DNA from: Pseudomonadota bacterium
GTDB taxonomy: Bacteria; Pseudomonadota; Gammaproteobacteria; RBG-16-57-12
Reading direction: 5' to 3'
Length of the DNA stretch: 64,000 nucleotides
NCBI GenBank assembly: GCA_040752855.1
Contig: JBFMHP010000017.1
Span: 81,960 to 145,959 of the forward strand
A program made the translations under genes and the position numbers. Shown here piece by piece: positions 8,717 to 61,237 of this stretch. The first letter of the stretch is position 1, and each line of letters starts with the position of its first letter. Below the pieces are notes generated by a model. It ran no database searches. It saw nothing but the letters and a program-made list of their open reading frames with translations, and was not told the origin of the DNA.

Positions 8717-8968
8717 TACCTGCGCCACAGCAAACCCTCCTCTGACAGCGGGGTCCCTTTCGATCCGACCTTGCCCCGCATCAAGGATAAAGTTACCCTG
8801 CCGCCCCGCAGAAAACGAGGAAGTTTTTAACCTAAAAAACGGGAATATTTCACATTTTTGCGCATTGGTGAACATGAGACATCTCAAAACCGTCGTACCG
8901 AGGTTCGAACCGCCCCGCCCATCGAAATGTCCTGAGGTATATCAACAATCCCGCCCCCTGTCGCGCAA

Positions 8969-9021: not shown

Positions 9022-9414
9022 TTATCGCATCATGGACTGAATGACCGCTAGCGGATAGGGGGGAGAGCAATAATCGGTGCGGCGTCCGCTACTAGAGATA
9101 AACGAAACGCATGTACTACTTTCGTATTTTACGACCCGAATGGTCTCGTCAGCGAGAATCTTAACGGTGTCCAGCGACTTACAGGCGTGTTGGCGCGCTG
9201 GATCATTGTCCTTAATCTCGTCACACCTTATCAGCCGGTTTCCAGTCGCAACCTCAATAATCTCGATCTCTTGACCATCCTTGAACACCAACGCCACGGG
9301 TGACCTTGTATCATGAATCGCACGCTCCAGCTTGCCTGCAGCGCAGCCTGATACAGTGACCACCAGCAAAGCGACAACAATCGACATCAAAATTTTTATT
9401 TTATTCAAAGACAT
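9022..9414 (-). CDS. Small lipoprotein, 130 aa (signal peptide plus lipobox VSGC); AT-rich gene
   Basis: MSLNKIKILMSIVVALLVVTVSGCAAGK. A GGAGGAG Shine-Dalgarno precedes the start. GC is ~48% by eye against ~65% in surrounding genes. Confidence 0.65.
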   Translation of the reverse strand: MSLNKIKILMSIVVALLVVTVSGCAAGKLERAIHDTRSPVALVFKDGQEIEIIEVATGNRLIRCDEIKDNDPARQHACKSLDTVKILADETIRVVKYESSTCVSFISSSGRRTDYCSPPYPLAVIQSMMR

Positions 9415-9575
9415 TTTATTAGCTCCTCCAGTTAAGAAAAATATATCCGCCGTTATAGCATCAGCGCGTACCCACTACTTCAGAAACAACCAAAAAAAAC
9501 ACTTCACCCACCTCTATCCATGGCAGCTGCCACAGCGCCCATCGCACCACATCACGACAAAACATGCTGGCGAAT

Positions 9576-12500
9576 CTAGAAACGCCATTCGACAGTCAAA
9601 TAATACGATCGTTTTGGGCTATACGGTGACTGCCGTTTTTCGTGACTTACAAAGTTGGTGCTTTGGAAACTAAAATTCTGATCGAAAAGGTTCTTGACCA
9701 TAAGCTTGAGTTGACCTCGACCGTGGGCCAGTAGATATCCAAGCGAGGCATCCGCAATCCAGAAATCGTCCTTATCTTCGTCAAGACCTGTCGCCGAACC
9801 AAAAGCCACATCTTGCTTTACGTAAGTCGCGACAAGATTGGCACTGAATCCTGTCGGATGAAAATAAGCCACATTCAACGGCAAGGAACGTGTGGTCAAA
9901 AGAAATGGAATATCCGGATTGATAGTCGTAAGGTCTGTTATCCGCGAGAAATCTTCATAATAATAACTCGCACCAGCGACTACTCTTTTCGTAGGCAAAA
10001 AGTCGATGTATACCCGATGGAAGCGCTCATCCTGCTTCTCGTCCTCCAGGCCCGCCGCTGTGTATACAAAGGCGGTCAAGTCGCGGCGGGTCAATTCCAC
10101 TCCCATGAATAAGCCCGGCGAAACCGTATAATCGAACGCAACGCCATAGCGTTTCGCGTCGGCGCCAAGCGTATCCTCGAAAAACTGATTAAACCCAGTT
10201 ACCTGAACAGGCTCAATGGTTTGCTTTGACAACATCTTTCTGGCCAGCGTTCTAAACGCTGCCATGCGCAGCGTGGCGCGCTCGCTTGGTCGCAACTGTA
10301 ATCCAAGTTTTGGATTGAACTGGCCATGATCTACACCGTTTTTCTCATCGATCACATCGTAGCTCAGACCAAGGGTTAACATATCCTTCTTCGCGTTAAA
10401 TACCTGGGCATAAAAATAGGTATTTGATTGGTCAATATCGCGATCCTGCTTGGTCATCTCATAAAATAACGGACGAAAATCTATGGTCTCAGCGCTTTCG
10501 ACACTCGCCTGGAGATAGCCAACGCCGAAGGTTGTTCTTACCTGATCACCTGCGAACATATGCTGACCTTCGGCCTGCATACCTGCAAGTTGCTCGTCAC
10601 TCGAGAATGTCCCTCGACGCAGGCTCTCCTCAAAATCGTCAGCCGTGACTAAAAAGGCAAGATCGTGCGTCGCGGTCGGCTTATAGTGCATACCAAGGCG
10701 AACCGCCTGGTCCTCCAGCTCGCGCCGCTCGGAGGTACTGAAATCTTCAGGATTGAAACGCAGCTCGAGGTCCCCTGACTCTGATTTCCGGCTGTACGCG
10801 TCTAACTGAACACTCAGATTTGGAGATATGGCATACTGCGAAAAAAGGTTGTAAATATCGTGTTTCAGATCATTATTTTCCCTGAAACCTTCGGTCTGAT
10901 AGTGATACTGGCCTATGCTGTACGACAGGCGGTCGTGCAGCCCGGACAAAACGAGCTCGTCACCTCGGGTACTATCACTACCAAGGACGGCGGCCGCATC
11001 AACGCGCATCCCATTACGACTGAACAGCGAATTGTATTCGTTGTACGAAGCTGTCGCGGGACCCGTTCCATCCACAAGATAAAGAGAGCTTGCCGTAAGC
11101 TGGGGACTCACCGGAATTAAGTTCAGCGGTTGAAGAAGCCGGGCTTGCAACAATTCGCTTTGTCGCGCCACCTCGTGGCGTGGCAATCCAGTATAACTTT
11201 CAGACAAAAACAGATGCGGAGCATGGTTACTGGAATCTTGAGCCAAAGAATTCCATGCCTCCACTAATGCGCGCTCGTCCAAACCAAGGCTCTGATATAT
11301 CTGCGCCAGGTCGGCGCTGCGCGCGGCAGCATCCTCGTCCAACAACAGGCGCGAGCGATACACCGCGCGGTTATCATTGAGCTTGCTGGCCTGCTGCAAA
11401 TCCTCGAGCGCTTCTACGGGGCGGTTTTCGCTGTGCTTGCGGATCGCGTCATAGTACCAGGGCGTAGGGTCTTTGGGATCCAGTTCCTGGGCCATGGCGA
11501 ATTGATCGGCCGCCAAGGGATGGCGCTTTTCCTCGTAATAGGCCTTGCCGAGATAGCTGCGGATCAGGGCATCGCCTGGATCGAGGCTGGCGGCATATTC
11601 GATCTGGCGGCGGCCGGATTCGAGTTCGCCGCGGCGGATCATGGCCAGTCCCAGGCCCTGGCGCGGAAGGGGATCGGCCTGGCTTTGCTGGATGGCGCGC
11701 TGGAATGCCTGCTCGGCTTTGTCGAGATCAATACGTGTGAGATACACGAAGCCCAGCACGGTCTGGGCGCGCGCAACATCGGGAGAGAGCGCAGCGGCGC
11801 GCTGCGCGGCCTGCAACGCGGCATCATGCTCACCGAACATCAGATGCAATTCCGCCAGCCTGGACCAGGCCATGGCGCTCTGCGGATGTGATTGGACGGC
11901 ATGCGTGACACGCGCGCGCGCCGCTTCAAGATCAAACATCGCCTGCTTGGCGTAGGAATCCGCGAGCAGCGCCGCCAGCGCGTCGGGGCTGGCCTTCACG
12001 GCCTGTTCGGCCAGCGTCTGCGCGACGGCGGTTTCATTGTGCACCAGCGCGATGATGGATTTGAGGGCCAACGCTTCGCCATTGCCCGCGTCCTGTTGCA
12101 AGGCGAGATCGAGATCGGCGTCGGCGGCATCGGCCCGGCCCGCGGCGAGATACAAGCCGGCGCGATAGGTGAGTACTCGGCTGCCGGCCAGCTCGGCCGG
12201 CAATGCCTCCATCTCCGCCAATGCCGCCGCTGCATTCCCTTGCCGATATCGTTCGACGGCGTTCGCAATCCGCGCATCCCAAGGTTCTGGCAGCACGCCG
12301 ATGTCTTGCACCGTAAAATCGATGACAGGCGGATAGTACAATGCCCAGCTCACCGCATCCCACGGTTTTACCTGAGCGCGCAGCACCGGCGCCTGCCCGG
12401 CGCCCGCCACCGCGGCGGCCCCGCTCGTCAACATCAGTTCGCCCTGATCATTCTTGGCGCGCACCCTGCCTTCGAGCACGGTGACCTCGGCCTGTGTCTC

Positions 12501-13001
12501 TTCCACGGCCACGATGAACTCCGTGCCTTCGACGGCGGCGTTGACATAGGGGGTGATGACTTCGAAGCGTTGCCGGATGCGGCTGATGAAATGGGCGATG
12601 CCCTGTTTGAGGTCCAGCCAGCTCGCCTGGTCTGGCGACAATCCGGTAAACGTGACTGTGGCGCGCTCGCTCAGACGCATGATCGAATTGTTGTTCAGAT
12701 GTAAGGCGGCCCGGCTGTTGGCCTGGGTGCGCACCATGTCGCCGTGACAGTAGACATTCCCGGCAACGGCTGGCACCCAGAGGGTTGAGGATTGCGCGCG
12801 CACCTCCACCACGCCTTCGATGGCGACGAGGGTGGCGACCGGCTCGGCGCAGTCTTCCGCCACGGCATGCGCTGAAATCCAGAACGATAAGACCGTGCTC
12901 AAGCCGAGAGCACGCATCATGATTGGATACCGAGACAAGTTCATCATTCGTTCCGTCTGTATTATGGCCGCGTCATTTGCCACGGTGCCGGGCGACCCCA
13001 C
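9576..13001 (-). CDS. Giant envelope protein: signal peptide, FecR domain, TPR repeats, C-terminal outer-membrane beta-barrel
   Basis: 1141-aa ORF. The signal peptide MMRALGLSTVLSFWISAHAVA is present, so the likely start is ~12929. A FecR-like block (VATLVAIEGVVEVRAQSSTLW...TVTF) is followed by multiple TPR-like Ala/Leu-rich repeats. The C-terminal ~450 aa have alternating amphipathic beta-strand character and end in YYLTVEWRF with a terminal aromatic, which is an outer-membrane-protein signature. Confidence 0.75.
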   Translation of the reverse strand: MGSPGTVANDAAIIQTERMMNLSRYPIMMRALGLSTVLSFWISAHAVAEDCAEPVATLVAIEGVVEVRAQSSTLWVPAVAGNVYCHGDMVRTQANSRAALHLNNNSIMRLSERATVTFTGLSPDQASWLDLKQGIAHFISRIRQRFEVITPYVNAAVEGTEFIVAVEETQAEVTVLEGRVRAKNDQGELMLTSGAAAVAGAGQAPVLRAQVKPWDAVSWALYYPPVIDFTVQDIGVLPEPWDARIANAVERYRQGNAAAALAEMEALPAELAGSRVLTYRAGLYLAAGRADAADADLDLALQQDAGNGEALALKSIIALVHNETAVAQTLAEQAVKASPDALAALLADSYAKQAMFDLEAARARVTHAVQSHPQSAMAWSRLAELHLMFGEHDAALQAAQRAAALSPDVARAQTVLGFVYLTRIDLDKAEQAFQRAIQQSQADPLPRQGLGLAMIRRGELESGRRQIEYAASLDPGDALIRSYLGKAYYEEKRHPLAADQFAMAQELDPKDPTPWYYDAIRKHSENRPVEALEDLQQASKLNDNRAVYRSRLLLDEDAAARSADLAQIYQSLGLDERALVEAWNSLAQDSSNHAPHLFLSESYTGLPRHEVARQSELLQARLLQPLNLIPVSPQLTASSLYLVDGTGPATASYNEYNSLFSRNGMRVDAAAVLGSDSTRGDELVLSGLHDRLSYSIGQYHYQTEGFRENNDLKHDIYNLFSQYAISPNLSVQLDAYSRKSESGDLELRFNPEDFSTSERRELEDQAVRLGMHYKPTATHDLAFLVTADDFEESLRRGTFSSDEQLAGMQAEGQHMFAGDQVRTTFGVGYLQASVESAETIDFRPLFYEMTKQDRDIDQSNTYFYAQVFNAKKDMLTLGLSYDVIDEKNGVDHGQFNPKLGLQLRPSERATLRMAAFRTLARKMLSKQTIEPVQVTGFNQFFEDTLGADAKRYGVAFDYTVSPGLFMGVELTRRDLTAFVYTAAGLEDEKQDERFHRVYIDFLPTKRVVAGASYYYEDFSRITDLTTINPDIPFLLTTRSLPLNVAYFHPTGFSANLVATYVKQDVAFGSATGLDEDKDDFWIADASLGYLLAHGRGQLKLMVKNLFDQNFSFQSTNFVSHEKRQSPYSPKRSYYLTVEWRF

Positions 13002-13294
13002 TAAACTCTCACCCCTTGGGCACGTACAATCATGCGCGCATTGAGTTCACATGCTCCGCCGAACCAGCGCGAACTCTCCTACCACTTGCGCCGCTGAAAA
13101 TTATCACATTACTGACTCAGTTGAAACCTGTCGCTGCGAATTTTTCCCCGGATCAAAACCCTTCATTTTGTGTTCCGGAAAATGACGGCTCGCGCAGCTA
13201 GGCTGCACTAGTCTCACAGTATCGACTTTGTCTGGATAAGGCAGCACACAAATACCGGCGCATTGTGTGAATATTGAATTGACAACCGCGCTCG

Positions 13295-15514
13295 TTATTT
13301 CTTCGGCACAACGATCACCCCGTCGGCGGGCCACGGGAGATCACCTCGCGCGTGCTGCTCGCAGCGCTGCAAGAAAAAGCGGCTCGGTCCATCATCAGGG
13401 CGCACCGTAAGCGCGCGCTGAAATTCGACCATCGCAGCGCGGCACTCTTGCCGCCGATAGGCATGCAATCCCTGACTGAAATGCCGGCACAATGCACGCT
13501 CACGCTCACCGCAGTGCGCTTCGAGACCGAGCAGTTCGTGAATCACGAGCGGCTGCTGCTTGCCGGCCAGGCGAAACATTCCGAGCTCTCGGCTGACAAA
13601 TCCATCCAGGTCGGCAAGGACTTCGCCGGTCACCAGCAAGGAGGTGCCGAGCTGCTTGTTCAACCCCTCGATGCGCGAGGCGGTGTTCACGATGTCCCCC
13701 ACGGCGCGGTATTCATAGTGATCCAGCGCGCCAATGTTGCCCAGCATGATCTCGCCGGCGTGCAGCCCCAACCGCGTCTGCAGCCGCCCCGCGTCAGCAC
13801 CGGCGTGCAGCGCTTCGAGCGCCGCCATGCACGCCTGCCGCCGCAGTCGGCGCTCGGGCGCGCGCGCCGACCAGATCGCCAGCATCGCATCCCCCACCAC
13901 ATCCGAGATGATGCCGCCGTGCTCGCGCACCGGCTTGAACAAGCATGCGTAATACTCGTTCATGTAGCTGGCGAGTTCTTCCGGCGCGAGGGATTCAGCC
14001 AACCGCGTGTACTGCGCGGCGTCCGTGGCCATGCATACGCCATACATGCGCTCGCTCGGTGCCGCGAGACGGCGCGCATCCCGCGCCAGCTCCTCAACCA
14101 CAGACTCCGGAAGATAATACCCGAAGGCCTGGCGAATCCGCGCACGCTCGCGTTTGAGCTGTTGATGCCGCCAGGCCAGCCCCAAAAATAACGCGAGCGG
14201 CGTTTGCACCAAAACGGGGATGAAAAGCGGCAGCCAGTAGCCATGGCGGGCAAACGCATACAGGCAGATCAAGCCGTAGATTGCACCCATGACGACGCAC
14301 GCGGCGACAAACACCCGCGCGCTTGGCAACATGTTCAGGCTCGCCAGTGCCAGACCAAAGAACACGATCAGCGCGAGATAATCCCACATCTCCGGCATGC
14401 GCAACGATTCCTGCGCCAGGAGATTGGCAAAAGCGGTCGCCGCAATCTCCACTCCGCTCAAATCCAACCCGCTGGACTGCGAGTACACCGTATAAAAGCT
14501 GTCTTTCTGCTCCGGCTGGCGTTCCTCGGAAAATCCGACGAACACCACCTTGTCCTTGAATCGCGTGAGATCCGCCTCGGGATCGAGCACCTGATGATAG
14601 GGCACCGTCGTGATGCTGCGCGGCGGGCCATAGAAATTGAGATAGCGGCGCTCCGGCCCCAGGCAGAGCGCGAGCAACGCTTGGAGACGGGGGCTGGCGC
14701 CGGGCTCGTGCACCAGGCCCGGTTGCTCGCGCAGTGCGCGCAACAGCTCCTGCCCCAACGCGGGGTGTTGCCTGAAGAATTCACGCAACTGCGCGAGCCG
14801 ACCTTTGATATCCGGGTCCGCGCGCACGGCCTGCCACCGGGCAGTGTGTTGCGGATACCGTTCCTGCAACAGCTCGAACAGCCGCGGCTGATCCTGCTTT
14901 GCGTAGAGCGCCAAGGCAACAGCCGGCATGGTCGGCACATCGCCGGCGGCGGCTTGAAAGGTCCAGAATTGATTGACCTTCACCGGCACCTTGGGCAAGG
15001 CAAAGGGCGCGGCCGCCGCCGCGGCATCATGAATGACGGGCAGCGGCGGCACGACGCGCTCCAGATTGTAGGCGCCGCCGGGGATCGATTGGACCTCGCG
15101 CTCGAGTTTGGCGAACACGACCACGTTGCCGGCGCTGCGCATCGACCGGGCCAGCCGCGCAGTCTCCTCGCCGTCGCGCGGCCGGTGAAAAAACATGTCG
15201 AAGACGATGACGGAGGCGCCCGCCTCGGAGAGCCGATCGATCAAGCGCGCATGGTATTCGCGCGGCCAGACCTCGCCGTCCTCGGCCATGCCGAGCTGCT
15301 CCGCGGCGGTCTTGTCGATTGAAACCAGCATCACTTGTTCGGGCGGCGCGCGCTGCCCGCGCTGTTTGAACAGCACATCCAAGGCGATATTTTCTTCCAA
15401 GGCAAAACCGCCGGGCAGTGCGTAAACGATTAGTCCGGTCAGGGCAAGCAGCAGTCCGAAACCGAGCGTCAGCGCCGCGCGCGCTTTGATATTCCAGTAC
15501 GCCGGCCTACGCAT
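13295..15514 (-). CDS. CHASE2-domain membrane adenylate/guanylate cyclase (class III)
   Basis: 739 aa: N-terminal TM, periplasmic CHASE2-like region, three TMs, then a cyclase homology domain (FADVVGFT-like region, GDAMLAIW, LGLHAGEIMLGNIG, IVNTASRIEG). Confidence 0.85.
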   Translation of the reverse strand: MRRPAYWNIKARAALTLGFGLLLALTGLIVYALPGGFALEENIALDVLFKQRGQRAPPEQVMLVSIDKTAAEQLGMAEDGEVWPREYHARLIDRLSEAGASVIVFDMFFHRPRDGEETARLARSMRSAGNVVVFAKLEREVQSIPGGAYNLERVVPPLPVIHDAAAAAAPFALPKVPVKVNQFWTFQAAAGDVPTMPAVALALYAKQDQPRLFELLQERYPQHTARWQAVRADPDIKGRLAQLREFFRQHPALGQELLRALREQPGLVHEPGASPRLQALLALCLGPERRYLNFYGPPRSITTVPYHQVLDPEADLTRFKDKVVFVGFSEERQPEQKDSFYTVYSQSSGLDLSGVEIAATAFANLLAQESLRMPEMWDYLALIVFFGLALASLNMLPSARVFVAACVVMGAIYGLICLYAFARHGYWLPLFIPVLVQTPLALFLGLAWRHQQLKRERARIRQAFGYYLPESVVEELARDARRLAAPSERMYGVCMATDAAQYTRLAESLAPEELASYMNEYYACLFKPVREHGGIISDVVGDAMLAIWSARAPERRLRRQACMAALEALHAGADAGRLQTRLGLHAGEIMLGNIGALDHYEYRAVGDIVNTASRIEGLNKQLGTSLLVTGEVLADLDGFVSRELGMFRLAGKQQPLVIHELLGLEAHCGERERALCRHFSQGLHAYRRQECRAAMVEFQRALTVRPDDGPSRFFLQRCEQHARGDLPWPADGVIVVPKK

Positions 15515-15702
15515 GGGCTTGGTGTTCTTCTCTTGATCGGCTTGGCAAACACATGTGCGGACGACAGCCCTCTACACGGGGAGTTCATTACCAGATTGGA
15601 TCGACTATAATTAACCGCGGGCGACACATCCAGTTGAATGAATCCCTTCCCGATGTGTTCCGCGCCCCGAAGAACAGACGACACCACTAGCGATGAGCCA
15701 TC

Positions 15703-16347
15703 ATGATAGCGAACATCCCGTTGTTTTCCGGCCTGAATGAATCGGAGCTGGCGCAAGTCAGCCAACATGCCGTCACACGCACCTATCCCAAGAGCACCGT
15801 GATCATCAACGAAGGCGATACCGCCGAATCGCTGTATGTGATCCTCAAAGGCAAGGTGAAGGTCTTCCTCACCGATGAAACCGGCAAGGAGGTCGTCATC
15901 AACAGCCAAGGGCCAGGGGAGTATTTCGGCGAGGTCGCGCTCATCGACGACGCCCAGCGCTCCGCCTCGGTGATGACGCTGGAACCCTCAAGCTTTTCGG
16001 TGATCTCCAAACATTCCTTCCGCGAGCTGCTGTCGAAGAATCCCAACATCGCGCTCAGCGTCATCCGGGACCTCACCCAGCGAGTACGGGTACTCACCGA
16101 GAACGTAAAAAGCCTCGCCCTGCTCGATGTCTATGGGCGCGTGGCCAAAACCCTGCTCAGCATGGCCTCGGAGCAGGACGGGCGGCTGCTTATCGAGGAA
16201 AAACTCACCCAGCAGGACATCGCCAACCGCGTCGGGGCCTCCCGCGAGATGGTCTCGCGCATCCTCAAGGACCTCACCGCCGGCGGGTATATCCAGATGG
16301 AAGACAAGCACATCGTGATCAACGAAAGACTGCCAAAGCATTATTAA
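15703..16347 (+). CDS. crp: Crp/Fnr-family cAMP-receptor-like transcriptional regulator
   Basis: 214 aa. A cNMP-binding domain (YFGEVALID) and a C-terminal helix-turn-helix (GRVAKTLL...TQQDIANRVGASREMVSRILKDL) closely resemble CRP/Vfr. It is divergent from the CHASE2 cyclase. Confidence 0.85.
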   Translation: MIANIPLFSGLNESELAQVSQHAVTRTYPKSTVIINEGDTAESLYVILKGKVKVFLTDETGKEVVINSQGPGEYFGEVALIDDAQRSASVMTLEPSSFSVISKHSFRELLSKNPNIALSVIRDLTQRVRVLTENVKSLALLDVYGRVAKTLLSMASEQDGRLLIEEKLTQQDIANRVGASREMVSRILKDLTAGGYIQMEDKHIVINERLPKHY

Positions 16348-53558: not shown

Positions 53559-55211
53559 ATGAACGACTTCATGCCGAAATGGCTCTTAGCCATGAGCATT
53601 CAGTGGAAACTGCAACTGAGTTTCTTTCTGGTCACCATGATCACTATCATCATCAATCGCGTGGTTGGTTACGGCGAAATGGAACGCCTGATCAAGATCG
53701 CCCAAGAACATGACCTGCCCCCGGAACTCCTCGCCAAACTCGACCAAGGACTCTCCAGTTACATCACCGATTCTTTCTGGCAGTCCGGACTGGAGTTCAT
53801 GCTGCTGTTCGTGATCATCGGAGTACTGGCCAACCGCTTCGTCACCCCGATCAAAAATCTGTGCACGGCGATGGAGCGCACCGAAAGAGGCGATCTCACC
53901 ACACCGGTTGCCAACGAGTCGCTGGATGAAATCGGCATCCTGGAGCGCAGCTTCAACTCCATGCTCAAACAATTGAATTCGGTCATCCGCAACATCGATG
54001 ACAACAGCAGCCAGATGGCGCAATCGGCCTATCAAGTGGCCGCCATTTCGCACGAGATCGCCGAGATCACCAAGCGCGAGCACAGCCACTCCTCCGAGGT
54101 CTCCGACGCCACGACCCAGCTCAAAGAGGTCACCACCACCGTGCGCTCGCTGGCCCAGGAGGCGCAGGAGCGCGTATCGCATGTCGATGTCGTGGCCAAG
54201 GACGGGCTGCAAATCGTCCAGAAGAACATCGATGAGATGGGTAAAACCGCCGCTGAGGTCGGCATCGCCTCCGATCAGGTCGGCGACCTGAAGGACTCCG
54301 CCAAGGAGATCTACCAGATCATCAGCACCATCAAGGAAATCGCCGAGCAGACCAACCTGCTGGCGCTCAACGCCGCCATCGAGGCGGCGCGGGCGGGTGA
54401 CTCCGGGCGCGGCTTTGCGGTGGTCGCCGATGAAGTGCGCGGGCTGGCGCAGCGCACCACCACCTCCACCGAGCAGATCACGCGCATCATCAACGATATC
54501 AATGTGCGTGTGGCCAATGTGGCGAGCAAGATGAACGATGTCGTCACACACGTGCAGCAGAGCAAGCAGACCGCGCAGAAAACCGCCGAGGTCATCGAGC
54601 AGATGTCCCAGGCCATCGGCGCCTCGACCGCCGCCAATCAAGAGATCAGCATGGTCTCGGAGCAACAATCGGTCTATTTCGAATCCCTGAAAAAACGCCT
54701 GGACAGCCTGTTCGACACCTTCCAGCAAAACTCATCCAAGGTCGCCACCACCGCCAACATCGGCGATGATCTCTATCGGGTTTCGGAAAGCATGAAGGCG
54801 TTGCTCGGACATTTTGTCTTCGAACGGGAGCAAACCTTCGCCAGAAACGATCAGGAAAAAAGAAAATCCCCGCGCCTCAATTCGCCGCTGCGGGTGCAAG
54901 TGCGACAAAACGGCGCGCTGCATGAAAGCATCTGCAACGACTTCAGCATGACCGGCATGCGCCTGCGCCTGCCCACGGTACTGGATAAGAAGTCGCCCAT
55001 TACCCTCAAGCTCTTCCGCCCGCTCCCCGATCTTGCCGAATACGAACGGCAGACACCCATCGAAATCACGGGCGTGATCCGCTGGCAACGCCAGGACGGC
55101 GAACGGCAACTGTGCGGCGTGGAATTCACCAATCTCGGCACCGCTCAAACGAAGGAGCTCAAGGGCTGTTATGCCTATTTCAACAAGCAGCCGGTATTTG
55201 CAAGCAGCTGA
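53559..55211 (+). CDS. Methyl-accepting chemotaxis protein with C-terminal PilZ (c-di-GMP-binding) domain
   Basis: 550 aa: 2 TM helices with a short periplasmic loop, HAMP, and an MCP signalling domain ([41 protein letters not shown]). The C-terminal PilZ motifs are RKSPR (RxxxR) and NDFSMTG (DxSxxG). Confidence 0.85.
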
Positions 55212-58696: not shown

Positions 58697-59779
58697 CTAC
58701 TTTTCGGCCTGCTTACCGCGCAGTTTCTCGAGCTTCTCCAAGACGCGTTCCGCGCGGATGATGTTGAACACCGCTTCCTCGTTGCCCGCATCCAGCGTAA
58801 GCACCTTGTTCCAACTGGCGATCGCCTCCTTGAACCGTCCGTCACGGTACAACGCAATGCCTTCATCCATCCTGGTTTTGGTGGCGGACTTGACGGCGCT
58901 ACGCATCCGCTCGCGCAGCGAACCCAGCCGCTCATCCTTGTATCCGTACCGCTCTGCTTGATCAACCAGGCTCTGGCACCTGACCAGCTCTTGCTGAGAC
59001 AGGCATTGCTCGATGGCATCGAGCAGCGCGGTATATTCGCGCGCCTGTTTTTCTTCCTGCAACTTGCGCTGCTGGGCTTCCTTCTGCTGCTGTTGCCGGC
59101 TGATGCGATCGTCAAGCTGGCGATTGACCTTCATCATCTCCTCTGAAGGCGCGAGTCGCGCGGAAAGATCGAGAAACTGTTTCGCCTTGGTCAAATCCTC
59201 CTGCTCCAGCGCTGCCTTGCCGATCAGCAGCGTCTTCTCGCCCAATTCCTTTGCCCGTATCCGCGCGTTGTATAGCTGCCACTGGACAGAAAAATCCCCC
59301 GGCGCCAGCAGCGCCATATCCTGATCCAAGGCAATGCTCTGGGCCAGCCATTGAGCCTCTGCAACCAGGCGGGCCTCGGCGATCCTGGTGCGCTCGCTTT
59401 CCGATGCCTTGGCGATGCGCTCCAGCGCCGCCGCCAGGCTCGGCCGGCCGGGTATGCTCCGCCTGGCCTCTTCGAGCAGCCTGTTCACTTCCTTCCAGTC
59501 GCCCTTCTGGATCGCCCCGTCGACATTCAAGCTCAACTCGGCTTCATAGGACTCGATCAGCTCCATGATTTGATTGCCCTTGGCCTGCGCCGCAGCATAG
59601 GCTTCGTCCTCTTTATTAACGTAGCTGAGGGTGTCCAGGGCACGGACATACTCCTTGCGTTCGACCAGCGCATCCACTTGGGCGGCGACATCACCCCTGG
59701 GCGCCATGAAATTCGCGCAACCGGTCATCAAGAGCACGGCTGACAACGCCAGGAGACTCGGTACGATTCTTATCCGCAT
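58697..59779 (-). CDS. Lipoprotein with TPR-like / coiled-coil helical repeats
   Basis: 360 aa with an LMTGC lipobox. It is Ala/Glu/Gln-rich and helical. Its start codon directly abuts the upstream cyclase stop (59779/59780). Confidence 0.6.
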   Translation of the reverse strand: MRIRIVPSLLALSAVLLMTGCANFMAPRGDVAAQVDALVERKEYVRALDTLSYVNKEDEAYAAAQAKGNQIMELIESYEAELSLNVDGAIQKGDWKEVNRLLEEARRSIPGRPSLAAALERIAKASESERTRIAEARLVAEAQWLAQSIALDQDMALLAPGDFSVQWQLYNARIRAKELGEKTLLIGKAALEQEDLTKAKQFLDLSARLAPSEEMMKVNRQLDDRISRQQQQKEAQQRKLQEEKQAREYTALLDAIEQCLSQQELVRCQSLVDQAERYGYKDERLGSLRERMRSAVKSATKTRMDEGIALYRDGRFKEAIASWNKVLTLDAGNEEAVFNIIRAERVLEKLEKLRGKQAEK

Positions 59780-61237
59780 CTAGACTTCCAGGATCTGTTT
59801 GGACATCTCGACCATCTGCCGCTGATACGGCGCCTGGACGTCGGTGACGAAATAGACCGCCACCGGCTCTTTCTTGCCGCGCAGCGCGATCTCGCCGTGA
59901 TATTTCACCTTCAAGGGAAAACCGGCCTTGCTCAACATCTCGAACATGGCGTCGGTGATGGCGATCTGGTTGGCACTCGCCACGGAGGACAGCCGCGAGG
60001 CCAGATTCACCGAATCCCCGATGACGGTATAGTTCATGCGTTCGGGCGATCCCATGTTGCCGGCAAGCATGCGCCCGCTGTTGACGCCGATGCGAAAATG
60101 CACGGGAATCAGGCCGCGATTGTTGCGATGATGATTGATGACTTGGATCACCTTCTGGATCAGCAAGGCGCAAAATACCGCATGGAAGGCATGCAACTCA
60201 TCCTCTTCCGGGGCGCCGAAGACCATCATGGCGCAATCCCCGATGTATTTGTCCACATGACCGTAACACATCTGTGTTGCCTGGGCGATGTAGCGGAAAT
60301 ACTCATTGAGCAGATCGCTGACCTCCGCCGGAGACATCTCCTCCGACAAGCTGGTGAATCCGACCACGTCGGCGAACACGACGCTGGCCTCCACGTAGCG
60401 CCCGCCCAGCTGCACCGTACCCGAGTTTTCGACCACCGCCTTGGCGACCTGGGGTGATACATAGCGGGCGAAGCTCTGTTCCAGGATCTCGCGCTGCTTG
60501 AGCTGATCGCACATGGTGGACATCGACTCGATCATCCGTCCTACCTCGTCCTTGCGCGTGTAGTCGACATCGATGCTGTAATCGCCCCGGGAGATCGATT
60601 CCGTCACACCGACGAGAGTGTTGATCGGCCGGCTGACCCGGCGGCCGACGAAGATGGAGATCAACACGCCGAGGAGGATGAGCACCACGGTCGTGCCGGC
60701 CACGGCCTCAAAGGTGTCCCGCCGGGCCTGGTTGAGCGCCGAGTAGTCGAAGGTGACGACGGCATAGCCGACGGTGACGCCTTCGAACTCCGCCCGCGCG
60801 ACGAACGAGGCCATCGGGAACGGCTTCTCCTTGCCCATCCCGAGCTGCCAGTTGATCACCTTTTCGGTTTTCATCTTGTTGATGAGCACATGCCGGGGCG
60901 GCACCAGCCCCGCCTGCACGAGGGGCTTCATATCCTCGGAATAAATCGACGCGCCCAGGATCTGTTGATTGGAAACGAGATTGGTCACCCCCACCTCCAG
61001 CGCCAGCACGTCATCGGCCATGATGGCGTCTTTGGCAGCTTCCGCGGATTGCTTGGCGAGGGCGCTGCCGAACTGGACGGTCTGCTGATCGAGCAACTGG
61101 CTTTGATCGTGGGCGATAATCCCCCCCATCAGCACCATGCCCGTGGCGATGGTGACGGTGAACAAAAACGCGATCTTGTATGCGATGGGGATTCGCACCG
61201 AGGAAAAGAGTCGCTTGATGGATCTTTTTTCTGTCAC
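59780..61237 (-). CDS. Membrane sensor adenylate/guanylate cyclase with HAMP domain (class III)
   Basis: 485 aa: 2 TM helices flanking a ~150-aa periplasmic loop, HAMP, and a cyclase domain (VVFADVVGFTSLSE, YIGDCAMMVFGAP, HFRIGVNSGRMLAGNMG, YTVIGDSVNLASRL). Confidence 0.85.
   Translation of the reverse strand: MTEKRSIKRLFSSVRIPIAYKIAFLFTVTIATGMVLMGGIIAHDQSQLLDQQTVQFGSALAKQSAEAAKDAIMADDVLALEVGVTNLVSNQQILGASIYSEDMKPLVQAGLVPPRHVLINKMKTEKVINWQLGMGKEKPFPMASFVARAEFEGVTVGYAVVTFDYSALNQARRDTFEAVAGTTVVLILLGVLISIFVGRRVSRPINTLVGVTESISRGDYSIDVDYTRKDEVGRMIESMSTMCDQLKQREILEQSFARYVSPQVAKAVVENSGTVQLGGRYVEASVVFADVVGFTSLSEEMSPAEVSDLLNEYFRYIAQATQMCYGHVDKYIGDCAMMVFGAPEEDELHAFHAVFCALLIQKVIQVINHHRNNRGLIPVHFRIGVNSGRMLAGNMGSPERMNYTVIGDSVNLASRLSSVASANQIAITDAMFEMLSKAGFPLKVKYHGEIALRGKKEPVAVYFVTDVQAPYQRQMVEMSKQILEV

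Follow-up and report, generated by a model that had tools for sequence, protein, structure and literature searches.

A candidate trans-envelope signalling locus of the NsrA/CHASE2-cyclase/Crp type in a gammaproteobacterial genome

How could an event at the cell surface reach a cyclic nucleotide-dependent transcription factor? This question is raised by three neighbouring genes in the window, i.e. the whole stretch of 64,000 nucleotides analysed here. A first-pass annotation of the sequence had described an exported 1141-aa protein with a FecR domain, TPR repeats and a C-terminal beta-barrel, a CHASE2 cyclase and a Crp-family regulator, and had suggested a relay from the surface via cAMP to Crp. 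All three open reading frames are present as described (ORF list). The features of the locus are as follows, with amino acid positions of the receptor in the 1123-aa numbering.

9576..12947, reverse strand: NsrA-like outer-membrane receptor gene, ~1123 aa (ORF list, translation, Pfam, hhalign)
12861..12947, reverse strand: predicted Sec signal peptide, aa 1-29, cleavage after AHA (translation inspected)
12378..12836, reverse strand: FecR-type beta-sandwich domain, aa 38-190 (Pfam; model all-beta over aa 38-190)
11133..12365, reverse strand: TPR superhelix, aa 195-605, ~26 helices (Pfam TPR families, modelled helices H195-H605)
11013..11132, reverse strand: low-confidence linker, aa 606-645 (pLDDT 53-65)
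9579..11012, reverse strand: 22-strand outer-membrane beta-barrel, plug-less, aa 646-1123 (model, Foldseek)
10161..10244, reverse strand: most conserved barrel segment, aa 902-929, QTIEPxQVxGFNQFFxD (pLDDT ~90)
12948..13294, reverse strand: 347-nt spacer from cyclase stop to receptor start codon (sequence)
13295..15514, reverse strand: CHASE2 class III nucleotidyl cyclase, 739 aa (Pfam, hydropathy scan, BLASTP to CyaK)
13901..13903, reverse strand: Asp538 codon, at the adenine-specifying Lys position (ungapped alignments)
13706..13714, reverse strand: Glu601-Tyr602-Arg603 codons, Arg603 being the second specificity position (alignments)
15515..15702, no strand: divergent intergenic region between cyclase and crp, 188 nt (sequence)
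15703..16347, forward strand: Crp-family cNMP-binding transcription factor, 214 aa (Pfam)

The receptor and its outer-membrane barrel

The length of 1141 aa applies to the mechanical ORF, which runs from a GTG codon (9576..13001, reverse strand; ORF list), but translation likely starts at an ATG at 12947 or 12944 and yields 1123 or 1122 aa. A database entry of 1122 aa (P0001), named 'FecR domain-containing protein', is 100 % identical to the giant protein. The N-terminus, MMNLSRYPIMMRALGLSTVLSFWISAHA/VAEDC, has on inspection of the translation the look of a Sec signal peptide, and this segment shows a pLDDT <50 in the AlphaFold2 model. The Pfam profile search detected FecR (PF04773) at E=2.6e-17, spanning aa 89-181 in the 1141-aa numbering or 71-163 in the 1123-aa numbering, as well as several TPR families at roughly aa 270-550. 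The FecR domain and TPR repeats first read from the letters were thus recovered. Within the TPR superhelix, RSYLGKAYYEEKR represents the most conserved periplasmic motif of the receptor family.

An AlphaFold2 model based on a 54-sequence alignment (mean pLDDT 83.8, pTM 0.80) contains 22 strands at aa 646-1122, mostly with pLDDT >85, and the top PDB matches to this part are PqqU, FecA, FpvA, FhuA and BtuB (Foldseek, E ~1e-15). The C-terminus matches OMP_b-brl_3 in Pfam without reaching the threshold (16.9 bits vs a cut-off of 27, E=0.0036); PF00593 is present in receptor homologs. A Plug domain was not found in the giant protein by Pfam. The C-terminal part is therefore confidently modelled as a 22-strand barrel of TonB-dependent-receptor type that lacks a plug, and not as a soluble, non-barrel domain, and it terminates in ...YYLTVEWRF with the aromatic signal ...WRF. 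An architecture reaching from the periplasm into the outer membrane, as proposed initially, agrees with domain searches and structure model, but the term 'porin' does not describe this barrel.

The barrel segment at aa 902-929, which served as search pattern for related loci, comprises the near-invariant columns Q909, T910, E912, P913, T914, G918, F919, N920, Q921, F923 and D925. Its place between strands 13 and 14 would make it extracellular loop 7 or, alternatively, a loop that folds into the lumen. On the whole, the barrel is much less conserved than the periplasmic part (mean identity 37 % vs 57 %). Over aa 550-650 the nearest relative of the receptor switches (sliding-window identity), and GC3 falls to 0.49 in the linker. 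From the sliding-window comparison the barrel appears exchangeable.

Judged by sequence, the receptor is a full-length remote homolog of NsrA (SMb20775) of Sinorhizobium meliloti with 23-25 % identity. BLASTP alignments are collinear (E=3e-13 for the N-terminal part, 6e-6 for the barrel), hhalign gives a probability of 99.84 % (E=1.7e-30, 960 aligned columns), and the segment at aa 902-929 is kept in part by NsrA.

Gene arrangement and conserved neighbourhood

The receptor gene had been placed immediately downstream of the cyclase gene; both adjoin on the same strand, but they are separated by the 347-nt spacer. No terminator or promoter match was obtained in this spacer, and its one CAP-like match (13093-13108, 2 mismatches) is within chance expectation. 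As noted before, crp is divergent from the cyclase gene across 188 nt. This region contains an imperfect inverted repeat (15617-15630/15652-15665) and lacks a CAP-like box. A Crp-type operator was found in neither spacer, in the window nor in 10 orthologous loci. Furthermore, no ECF sigma domain was matched in the ten neighbouring ORFs scanned, at 4 to 20 kb.

The receptor family has many members, at least 594 stretches of species-representative genomes giving a match, and the combination of FecR, TPR and outer-membrane barrel occurs in thousands of database proteins. Co-occurrence with cyclases was assessed in 63 informative loci, i.e. related loci with enough upstream sequence. A CHASE2 cyclase gene is located directly upstream of the receptor gene on the same strand in 48 of the 63, and a CHASE2 homolog is found within 7 kb in 56. 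The remaining seven show no CHASE2 gene within 7 kb, so the receptor can also occur with no cyclase beside it. Of 45 loci, 12 have a divergent orthologous Crp (E <1e-77). The loci are distributed over Gammaproteobacteria, nitrifiers (Nitrosomonas and related Betaproteobacteria), Desulfobacterota, Nitrospirota and Brocadia; among the carriers are the culturable Nitrosomonas europaea and Desulfosarcina variabilis. The gene pair is conserved and, in Gammaproteobacteria, the gene trio; conservation around the locus is limited to receptor, cyclase and crp. The adjacency of receptor and cyclase is far beyond chance, and this synteny, kept across several phyla, speaks for a functional connection of the giant protein with the CHASE2 cyclase.

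Cyclase, regulator and the proposed relay

The cyclase ORF matches CHASE2 (3.1e-35) and Guanylate_cyc (7.6e-9) in Pfam and shows 31 % identity to S. meliloti CyaK (BLASTP, E=6e-33). A hydropathy scan suggests a transmembrane segment at 15-33, a periplasmic CHASE2 domain, three further segments at 380-446 and a cytoplasmic cyclase domain at 495-654; the membrane topology of this protein, like that of the receptor, is a predicted one. The catalytic residues are intact by alignment, D498, D542, N610 and R614 being kept in 48-49 of 49 orthologs. Asp538 was placed by ungapped alignment to CyaK, 6FHT (Cya2 E488K), OaPAC and the HAMP cyclase of the same window, and it aligns with Glu488 of the guanylate cyclase Cya2; of the 49 clade sequences, 34 carry D at this site, 8 N and 3 E. 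At the second specificity position adenylate cyclases have Asp, Thr or Ser, and guanylate cyclases Cys or Gly. Here it is Arg603, and R in 42 of 49 orthologs; a D-E-R triplet occurs in 30/49 clade sequences and N-E-R in 6/49. CyaK carries K/S, the HAMP cyclase the canonical K/T, and two other receptor-linked cyclases (L049, L070) a Cya2-like E/G pair. By hydrogen-bond logic, the Asp538/Arg603 pair would fit guanine better than adenine.

The regulator matches cNMP_binding (3.7e-26) and HTH_Crp_2 (4.2e-15) in Pfam and has the F-helix REMVSR. It keeps G71, E72, R82 and S83, and its ribose-phosphate cassette is intact. The Thr127-Ser128 signature is changed to Leu-Thr, and the experimentally studied cNMP-binding CRPs covered in the text of a review carry Thr where the regulator has Leu (PMC10187061).

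We consider it probable (roughly 75 %) that the locus is a trans-envelope signalling relay of the NsrA/CHASE2-cyclase/Crp type. The giant protein would be exported and its barrel inserted into the outer membrane, with the FecR domain and the TPR superhelix hanging in the periplasm. A cue may be sensed at the barrel or by way of it, with the conserved loop at aa 902-929, whose placement relative to the lumen is conjectural, possibly taking part. By a presumed physical coupling the FecR/TPR arm would signal to the CHASE2 domain that the inner-membrane cyclase exposes in the periplasm, the cytoplasmic class III domain would then synthesise a cyclic nucleotide, and the divergently encoded regulator would bind it and change transcription. 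Direction, cue and regulon of this relay are likewise presumptive.

In its first description the relay ran on cAMP, with the CHASE2 enzyme as adenylate cyclase and Crp as cAMP receptor, a version which is conceivable but which we regard as rather doubtful. Non-canonical specificity pairs can still yield adenylate cyclase activity, as reportedly in Mycobacterium Rv1900c and Rv0386, and most PDB relatives of the catalytic domain are adenylate cyclases. In addition, the CRP model is the best NCBIfam match of the regulator, and the homologous system of CyaK, CyaD1/D2 and Clr makes and reads cAMP (PMC13001267). However, the CRP match (151 bits) lies under the equivalog cut-off of 266, the Leu of the regulator departs from the Thr of its studied counterparts, and Asp538/Arg603 replace Lys and its partner clade-wide. 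The closest solved relative, Cya2, is a CHASE2-regulated guanylate cyclase in which Glu or Lys at this position switches between GTP and ATP (PMC5995499), and every guanylate cyclase characterised carries an acidic residue there (PMC4215837). Since the cyclase lacks the adenine-specifying Lys and Crp the Thr127 base contact, the label 'cAMP' is not established and the messenger may be another one. The surface-cyclase-Crp order matches the genetically characterised NsrA/CyaK/Clr pathway, and both large proteins are homologs of their S. meliloti counterparts. That the domain is a degenerate pseudo-enzyme, scaffolding or sensing without nucleotide synthesis, might be suspected from the unusual pair and a weak Pfam score (35.9 bits, where CyaK reaches 73 and the HAMP cyclase 112). 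This is very unlikely in view of the (near-)invariant metal-binding Asp residues and transition-state Asn and Arg and of the cNMP-binding regulator that accompanies the locus in many genomes; moreover, conservation of the D/R pair indicates selection on the pocket.

Two other explanations concern the barrel. The giant protein could be an uptake channel like TonB-dependent receptors, its adjacency to the cyclase having no signalling meaning: TonB-dependent transporters are the best structural matches, several of the PF00593-carrying homologs are named 'TonB-dependent receptor' by NCBI, and the NLFD...F motif at the C-terminus is one that such receptors typically have. This is highly improbable, given the missing Plug domain, an N-terminal 645 aa consisting of FecR, TPR and linker where transporters have TonB box and plug, the synteny kept across phyla and the genetic requirement of the homolog NsrA for signalling (PMC7529298). 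Alternatively, the barrel might merely anchor an arm which senses the periplasmic or envelope state (e.g. peptidoglycan or envelope spacing) and modulates CHASE2. The apparent exchangeability of the barrel and the far higher conservation of the periplasmic part agree with this, as do FecR partners of CHASE2 sensors without a barrel, such as the LysM-FecR proteins of Burkholderia and P. aeruginosa (PMC5192318) or those of the lipoprotein type, which score weakly here (LipL45). It is nevertheless unlikely, because the external signal uL2 needs nsrA, with the surface loops of NsrA as proposed binding site (PMC7529298), and because few stretches of the family are as conserved as the aa 902-929 segment, which would be unexpected for a pure anchor.

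Comparison with known systems

The relay type favoured here is closest to the 'autoregulation of infection' system of S. meliloti, formed by NsrA, CyaK (with CyaD1 and CyaD2) and Clr. In NsrA, too, FecR and TPR follow a signal peptide and precede a C-terminal barrel of ~500-600 aa, CyaK is an inner-membrane CHASE2 class III cyclase and Clr a Crp-family effector, and both systems share the logic surface, cyclic nucleotide, transcription. nsrA is needed for signal perception via CyaK and CyaD1/D2, with Clr as Crp-type effector (PMC7529298, PMC13001267), and externally added ribosomal protein uL2 acts as an nsrA-requiring signal (PMC7529298). As this system is already published, the three-gene unit is of a kind already described and its architecture is not new; the novelty implied for the FecR-TPR-barrel fusion does not hold. 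The order differs: here the cyclase precedes the receptor with a gap of 347 nt, whereas the S. meliloti genes run from nsrA to cyaK, the stop codon of the former overlapping the start of the latter (L002). The low identity to NsrA, the reversed order, the spacer, the missing Crp-type operator and the seven loci with no CHASE2 gene within 7 kb were counted against the relay. Here crp lies inside the locus, while clr is absent from the ~17 kb fetched around nsrA-cyaK. The specificity pair is D/R instead of K/S, and the Crp signature L-T instead of T-T in Clr (PMC10127613). Since the host is a free-living-type gammaproteobacterial MAG and not a plant symbiont, the cue must differ.

FecR proteins as partners of CHASE2 sensors, mentioned in the first-pass annotation, are indeed known from Burkholderia and P. 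aeruginosa (PMC5192318) and from Campylobacterota (PMC9239204). The Burkholderia 'BiofilmReg' operon and the P. aeruginosa PA4035/PA4036-type pair resemble the locus in this pairing, but a peptidoglycan-binding LysM anchor takes the place of the barrel, and a CHASE2 histidine kinase with two-component output that of the cyclase (PMC5192318). In Campylobacterota, a cAMP cluster of a CHASE2 adenylate cyclase, a phosphodiesterase, a FecR-domain protein of the outer membrane and a TPR protein was proposed to be a single pathway spread by horizontal transfer (PMC9239204). The grouped functions correspond, yet FecR outer-membrane and TPR proteins are separate genes there and one polypeptide with the barrel here, and the cluster there includes a phosphodiesterase, whereas no further gene is conserved with the locus here. 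Synechocystis Cya2 (PDB 2W01; fusion 6FHT) shares the CHASE2-TM-class III layout and the acidic first specificity residue, its pair being Glu/Gly instead of Asp/Arg.

Finally, the FecA/FecR/FecI system of cell-surface signalling, a TonB-dependent transducer working with an anti-sigma factor, follows the same concept, in which a signalling protein of the inner membrane responds across the periplasm to an outer-membrane event, and a FecA-like 22-strand barrel is combined with a FecR-type periplasmic domain in both cases. In the receptor, however, this domain is covalently fused to the barrel via TPR repeats, plug and N-terminal signalling domain of FecA are missing, and the TonB-box region is taken by FecR and TPR. 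Unlike the FecR anti-sigma factor, the receptor has a signal peptide only and no anti-sigma transmembrane part, and the output would be a cyclic nucleotide instead of the release of a sigma factor.

Receptor gene and C-terminal barrel

All three ORFs named by the first-pass annotation, encoding a giant FecR-TPR-barrel protein (here called the receptor), a CHASE2 cyclase and a divergent Crp-family regulator, were found in the ORF listing of the window. They are listed here together with the other features referred to in the text.

Features of the window
3506-3594, tRNA-Ser(TGA)
4117-5466, minus strand, ORF of 449 aa without Pfam match, in a group of four ORFs that directly follows the receptor gene
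5743-8007, minus strand, ORF of 754 aa without Pfam match, same group
8315-8887, minus strand, ORF of 190 aa without Pfam match, same group
9022-9414, minus strand, ORF of 130 aa without Pfam match, same group
9576-12947, minus strand, receptor of about 1123 aa
13295-15514, minus strand, CHASE2 class III cyclase of 739 aa
15703-16347, plus strand, Crp-family regulator of 214 aa
42312-52469, minus strand, type II secretion (gsp) cluster with GspC, GspD secretin, GspE, GspF, GspK and GspL
53559-55211, plus strand, methyl-accepting chemotaxis protein with HAMP, MCPsignal and C-terminal PilZ domains (domain search)
58697-59779, minus strand, TPR protein alongside the following cyclase
59780-61237, minus strand, class III cyclase with HAMP and Guanylate_cyc (2.8e-32) domains

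The receptor ORF covers 9576-13001 (minus strand) and comprises 1141 codons with a GTG start. As judged from the sequence, translation is likely to start at a pair of ATG codons at 12947/12944, which is preceded by a weak GGA, and the 100 % identical database entry P0001 has 1122 aa; residues are numbered here after the 1123-aa form. The N-terminus MMNLSRYPIMMRALGLSTVLSFWISAHA/VAEDC resembles, by inspection, a Sec signal peptide, and besides it a hydropathy scan revealed no internal transmembrane (TM) segment. The FecR domain ascribed to the protein was confirmed by a Pfam match (E=2.6e-17), and many TPR families matched at about aa 270-550. For the C-terminal barrel only a sub-threshold Pfam match to OMP_b-brl_3 was obtained (E=0.0036, 16.9 bits vs a cut-off of 27).

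A model of the receptor was calculated with AlphaFold2 on a 54-sequence alignment (A1; mean pLDDT 83.8, pTM 0.80). It consists of a FecR beta-sandwich (aa 38-190), a helical repeat without interruption (aa 195-605) and 22 long strands with high pLDDT (aa 646-1122). The top PDB matches found by Foldseek are all TonB-dependent transporters, namely PqqU, FecA, FpvA, FhuA, FhuE, BtuB and OprC (E about 1e-15, about 500-600 aligned columns). In addition, PF00593 is present in many receptor homologs, some of which carry the NCBI name 'TonB-dependent receptor'. The C-terminal outer-membrane beta-barrel claimed earlier is thus supported by the modelled strands and by their matches to transporter barrels; neither a soluble C-terminus nor a failure of the FecR profile was encountered. 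In the model a genuine barrel is present, and its type is that of TonB-dependent receptors. The best-conserved part of the barrel half is the segment aa 902-929 (QTIEPxQVxGFNQFFxD) between strands 13 and 14. The parity of the strands in the modelled fold predicts it to be extracellular loop 7, or else to fold into the barrel lumen.

The 22-strand barrel, present in the model and in the Foldseek matches, would also be expected of a true TonB-dependent transporter. However, Pfam gave no match to the Plug domain (PF07715) in the receptor, and the N-terminal 645 aa of the model are filled by FecR, TPR and a low-confidence linker only, which argues against a transporter. In another rival reading, the barrel would act merely as an anchor.

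The receptor gene is mosaic in composition. Its third-position GC content (GC3) decreases from 0.80 in the FecR part over 0.70 in the TPR part to 0.54 in the barrel part; the small ORF 9022-9414 has 0.55 and the neighbouring genes have 0.78-0.81. The low-GC3 block occupies 9022-11130, i.e. the barrel-coding half of the receptor gene and ORF 9022-9414. Among the matches listed, the periplasmic part is nearest to the homolog P0007 (75 % identity), the barrel of which is only 33 % identical, whereas the barrel is nearest to P0002, P0003 and P0005 (53-55 %); along the protein the nearest relative switches around aa 550-650. In the family the mean identity is 37 % for the barrel vs 57 % for the periplasmic part, and 130 of 1431 pairs show an N-terminal identity more than 0.3 higher than that of the barrel. 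The same barrel type occurs at locus L003, a Chromatiales MAG whose genome has 48 % GC. The simplest reading of these patterns is that the barrel and the downstream ORF were replaced by recombination with a lower-GC relative, and such a replacement suggests that the surface-exposed module of the receptor can be exchanged. L003 is also the closest genome among the matches listed, and two hypothetical genes downstream of the receptor are common to both loci. The 754-aa and 130-aa downstream ORFs have homologs only in L003 among the loci compared, there likewise 3' of the receptor.

The window also contains the housekeeping genes serS, ftsK, a Clp ATPase gene, icd and a cysG-like gene, which together with the tRNA-Ser(TGA) gene indicate a chromosomal location. 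The PilZ-bearing chemoreceptor 53559-55211 probably binds c-di-GMP, to judge by its domains.

Cyclase, regulator and conservation of the locus

The cyclase shows Pfam matches to CHASE2 (3.1e-35, aa 29-390) and Guanylate_cyc (7.6e-9). Hydropathy places one TM segment (15-33) before CHASE2 and three (380-446) behind it, so that CHASE2 is periplasmic. The divergent regulator belongs to the Crp family (cNMP_binding and HTH_Crp_2, Pfam) and is separated from the cyclase gene by a 188-nt spacer, in accordance with the arrangement described before. The receptor gene had been placed 'immediately downstream' of the cyclase; it is the next gene, but 347 nt lie between the cyclase stop and the receptor start, and the expression has to be taken loosely. 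CAP-like operators (TGTGA-N6-TCACA, up to 2 mismatches) occur 14 times in the window vs 18 expected, and the best matches in the crp-cyclase and cyclase-receptor spacers of the window and 10 orthologous loci do not surpass those of shuffled sequence, which gives no evidence for autoregulation via a CAP-type site. Promoter and terminator pattern scans and Rfam likewise yielded nothing in either spacer. The crp-cyclase spacer contains an imperfect inverted repeat at 15617-15665 (GCGGGCGACACATC, 21 nt, GATGTGTTCCGCGC), which is not CAP-like.

Both membrane components are homologous to a characterised pair of Sinorhizobium meliloti, the receptor NsrA and the CHASE2 cyclase CyaK, encoded on pSymB. 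Pfam assigns aa 66-160 of NsrA to FecR and aa 378-587 to TPRs, leaving its C-terminal half without annotation; CyaK consists of CHASE2 and Guanylate_cyc. The receptor is collinear with NsrA in BLASTP (aa 12-524 vs 5-540, E=3e-13; barrel aa 876-1095 vs 969-1182, E=6e-6), and in hhalign its profile matches NsrA with a probability of 99.84 % (E=1.7e-30, 960 columns) from profile position 51-1107 vs 44-1186, almost the entire length of both proteins. The cyclase is 31 % identical to CyaK (BLASTP, E=6e-33). The nsrA gene was reached by tblastn of the cyclase and then through the annotated pSymB region; tblastn of the giant protein vs plasmids missed it since the divergence is too great. The sole plasmid match of that search, a Phyllobacterium TPR protein beside a type VI secretion cluster, is unrelated. 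The window locus is a member of the NsrA/CHASE2-cyclase/Crp kind and comes from a large uncharacterised subfamily.

A protein search with the receptor gave 3046 matches, the best 120 of which all have 1036-1174 aa and the same domain set, and at least 594 stretches (contigs, one genome per species) encode receptor relatives. Carriers among the matches listed are Chromatiales, Thiodiazotropha symbionts, Nitrosomonas europaea, Nitrosospira and Methylococcales as well as Desulfosarcina, Syntrophales, Nitrospirota, Candidatus Brocadia, Rokubacteria and Acidobacteriota. For synteny, ORFs were called in 80 loci and searched with the window proteins, and counts were made for the 63 loci in which 2.6 kb or more of sequence precede the receptor gene. 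The cyclase gene is directly upstream on the same strand in 48/63 loci, and a CHASE2 homolog lies anywhere within 7 kb of the receptor gene in 56/63. In the other seven (L029, L037, L045, L054, L058, L061 and L068) none is found within this distance, and their receptors may have a different partner or one encoded far away; L037 and L045 are Nitrosospira loci, and a single MAG carries both L054 and L068. Of 45 eligible loci, 12 have a divergent clear Crp ortholog (E <1e-77) ahead of the cyclase, and these 12 are without exception gammaproteobacterial. In Nitrosomonas genomes the Crp-like gene is located downstream of the receptor rather than divergent from the cyclase. No other window gene is conserved together with the module.

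Nucleotide specificity of the cyclase and its Crp partner

The metal-binding residues D498 and D542 and the transition-state residues N610 and R614 of the cyclase are kept in 48-49 of 49 orthologs. This intact catalytic machinery argues against a pseudo-enzyme, a reading in which the cyclase domain would scaffold or sense instead of making a nucleotide. The adenylate cyclase pair at the two substrate-specificity positions (Lys plus Asp/Thr/Ser) is absent from the enzyme and D538/R603 are found instead. Both align without gaps to CyaK, D538 to a Lys (CyaK GTIDKYIGD vs window GIISDVVGD) and R603 to a Ser (CyaK DYSALGD vs window EYRAVGD), giving K/S in CyaK; the alignment is also ungapped to Cya2 E488K, to OaPAC (K/T) and to the HAMP cyclase of the same window (K/T). 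The last enzyme, 45 kb away, keeps the canonical pair, so the D/R pair does not reflect a genome-wide drift. The triplet 538/601/603 is D-E-R in 30/49 and N-E-R in 6/49 sequences of the clade.

The best PDB match of the cyclase is 6FHT, a fusion with the Synechocystis Cya2 cyclase core, followed by OaPAC. Cya2 is a CHASE2-regulated guanylate cyclase which the exchange E488K, exactly at the position of D538, converts to an adenylate cyclase (PMC5995499). K and D are conserved in adenylate cyclases; in guanylate cyclases the K position is occupied by Glu, and the second position varies (Cys, Gly, Ser, Thr, His or Ala) (PMC4215837). Compared with this signature, the first residue of the window cyclase is acidic but Asp instead of Glu, and the second is Arg, outside the known set. 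The literature searched describes no characterised enzyme in which the pair is D/R. A Cya2-like E/G pair is present in two receptor-linked CHASE2 cyclases of another branch (L049:11391-13667 and L070:12519-14774), both encoded downstream of NsrA-like genes and in L070 directly followed by a Crp-like gene. Guanylate-cyclase-type enzymes thus do adjoin NsrA-like receptors. From simple hydrogen-bond complementarity we infer that guanine, not adenine, would suit a pocket with Asp as acceptor on the N1 side and Arg as donor on the C6 side: for GTP to be selected, Asp538 would act as acceptor for N1-H and N2-H2, and Arg603 as donor to O6 and N7.

In the window Crp the ribose-phosphate cassette is intact (G71, E72, R82 and S83), and the F-helix REMVSR fits R-E-x-x-x-R, which has been defined as the F-helix signature of CRP (PMC10187061). 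At the base-contact positions Thr127-Ser128 of CAP, Leu-Thr is found in the window protein, and the 12 orthologs and the Nitrosomonas-type partners all share it; for the cNMP-binding CRPs that a review text describes, the residues are TS, TN or TT (PMC10187061). The score against the NCBIfam CRP equivalog (151.3 bits) is below the cut-off of 266. The cGMP-specific CgrA retains TS (PMC10187061), so this signature cannot tell cAMP from cGMP. The ligand is not predictable from Crp signatures, and the Crp data are read only as 'not a canonical CAP'. E. coli CRP T127L may be responsive to cGMP, and no weight is given to this as evidence. In a published list, T127L appears solely as a CRP variant with raised DNA affinity without cAMP (PMC11445507).

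It is tentatively suggested that the receptor/CHASE2 clade may not signal by cAMP, with D538/(E601)/R603 selecting GTP or another non-adenine NTP and the co-evolving L127-T128 Crp being the matching cGMP/cNMP receptor. The clade is very large and extends over sulfur oxidisers, nitrifiers, sulfate reducers, Nitrospirota and anammox bacteria. Within the relay, the odds for cAMP as messenger are below even and equal to those for cGMP or another non-adenine product; enzymes that are promiscuous or inactive account for the rest. The one feature of the locus that merits an experiment is the specificity pocket with its conserved Asp and Arg, together with the Leu127-type Crp partner. Should the pocket be GTP-specific, the annotation as adenylate cyclase would be wrong in hundreds of species, and cGMP signalling in bacteria would be far commoner than now thought. 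The non-cAMP reading, if true, would amount to a widespread bacterial trans-envelope cGMP pathway with a previously undescribed specificity pair.

The proposed relay in comparison with known systems

With the nucleotide left open, a relay from the surface through the periplasm to the CHASE2 cyclase and Crp is favoured with a probability of about three in four. It is supported by the domain architecture, by homology of the two large proteins to NsrA and CyaK, by the conserved synteny and by the intact catalytic residues and cNMP cassette. The receptor would be exported by Sec and its barrel, with the C-terminus ...WRF, inserted by BAM, while the FecR and TPR parts would sit in the periplasm. 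A cue may be perceived at or through the barrel, the FecR/TPR arm would hand the signal to the CHASE2 domain, the cyclase dimer would become activated and Crp would bind the cNMP for transcriptional output.

In S. meliloti, the CHASE2 cyclases CyaK and CyaD1/D2 relay the signals, and the Crp-type Clr carries out the response (PMC7529298, PMC13001267). The NsrA barrel has been put at residues 600-1200 with surface loops proposed to bind ribosomal protein uL2, and a requirement of the receptor for signal perception by the cyclase was demonstrated in S. meliloti alone (PMC7529298). Like NsrA, the window receptor has FecR and then TPR in the N-terminal half and a C-terminal barrel of about 500-600 aa; the gene order, cyclase before receptor, is reversed compared to nsrA-cyaK. 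Other FecR-CHASE2 pairings are known: in Burkholderia and P. aeruginosa a CHASE2 histidine kinase is paired with LysM-FecR (PMC5192318), and Campylobacterota have a cluster of CHASE2 cyclase, phosphodiesterase, FecR outer-membrane protein and TPR protein (PMC9239204). No such phosphodiesterase or other accessory gene is kept with the module, only receptor, cyclase and crp are conserved. The relay of surface signal, cyclase, cAMP and Crp proposed by the first-pass annotation was therefore right in outline but is the accepted model of a homologous system and not new, and cAMP as its messenger is not secure.

So far the NsrA-CHASE2 relay was studied in one organism, as a curiosity of plant symbiosis. 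With at least 594 matching stretches in species-representative genomes, the module is widespread among chemolithotrophs, both free-living and symbiotic, and since there is no plant signal in these carriers it appears as a general Gram-negative route from an outer-membrane event to cyclic-nucleotide synthesis. It further provides a concrete structural frame for CHASE2 sensing, a FecR-type domain tethered by TPR repeats to a plug-less FecA-type barrel.

Conceptually, this is a rewired Fec system, in which the FecR-type domain is joined via TPR repeats to the FecA-type barrel. In Fec-type signalling, FecR is an anti-sigma protein with a cytoplasmic and a TM part, whereas the window protein begins with a signal peptide and lacks internal TM segments; no sigma-70/ECF domain was matched among ten neighbouring ORFs scanned at 4-20 kb. 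Compared with FecA, both the plug and the N-terminal signalling domain are described as lost from the window barrel, and the recipient at the inner membrane is not an anti-sigma factor but a CHASE2 cyclase.
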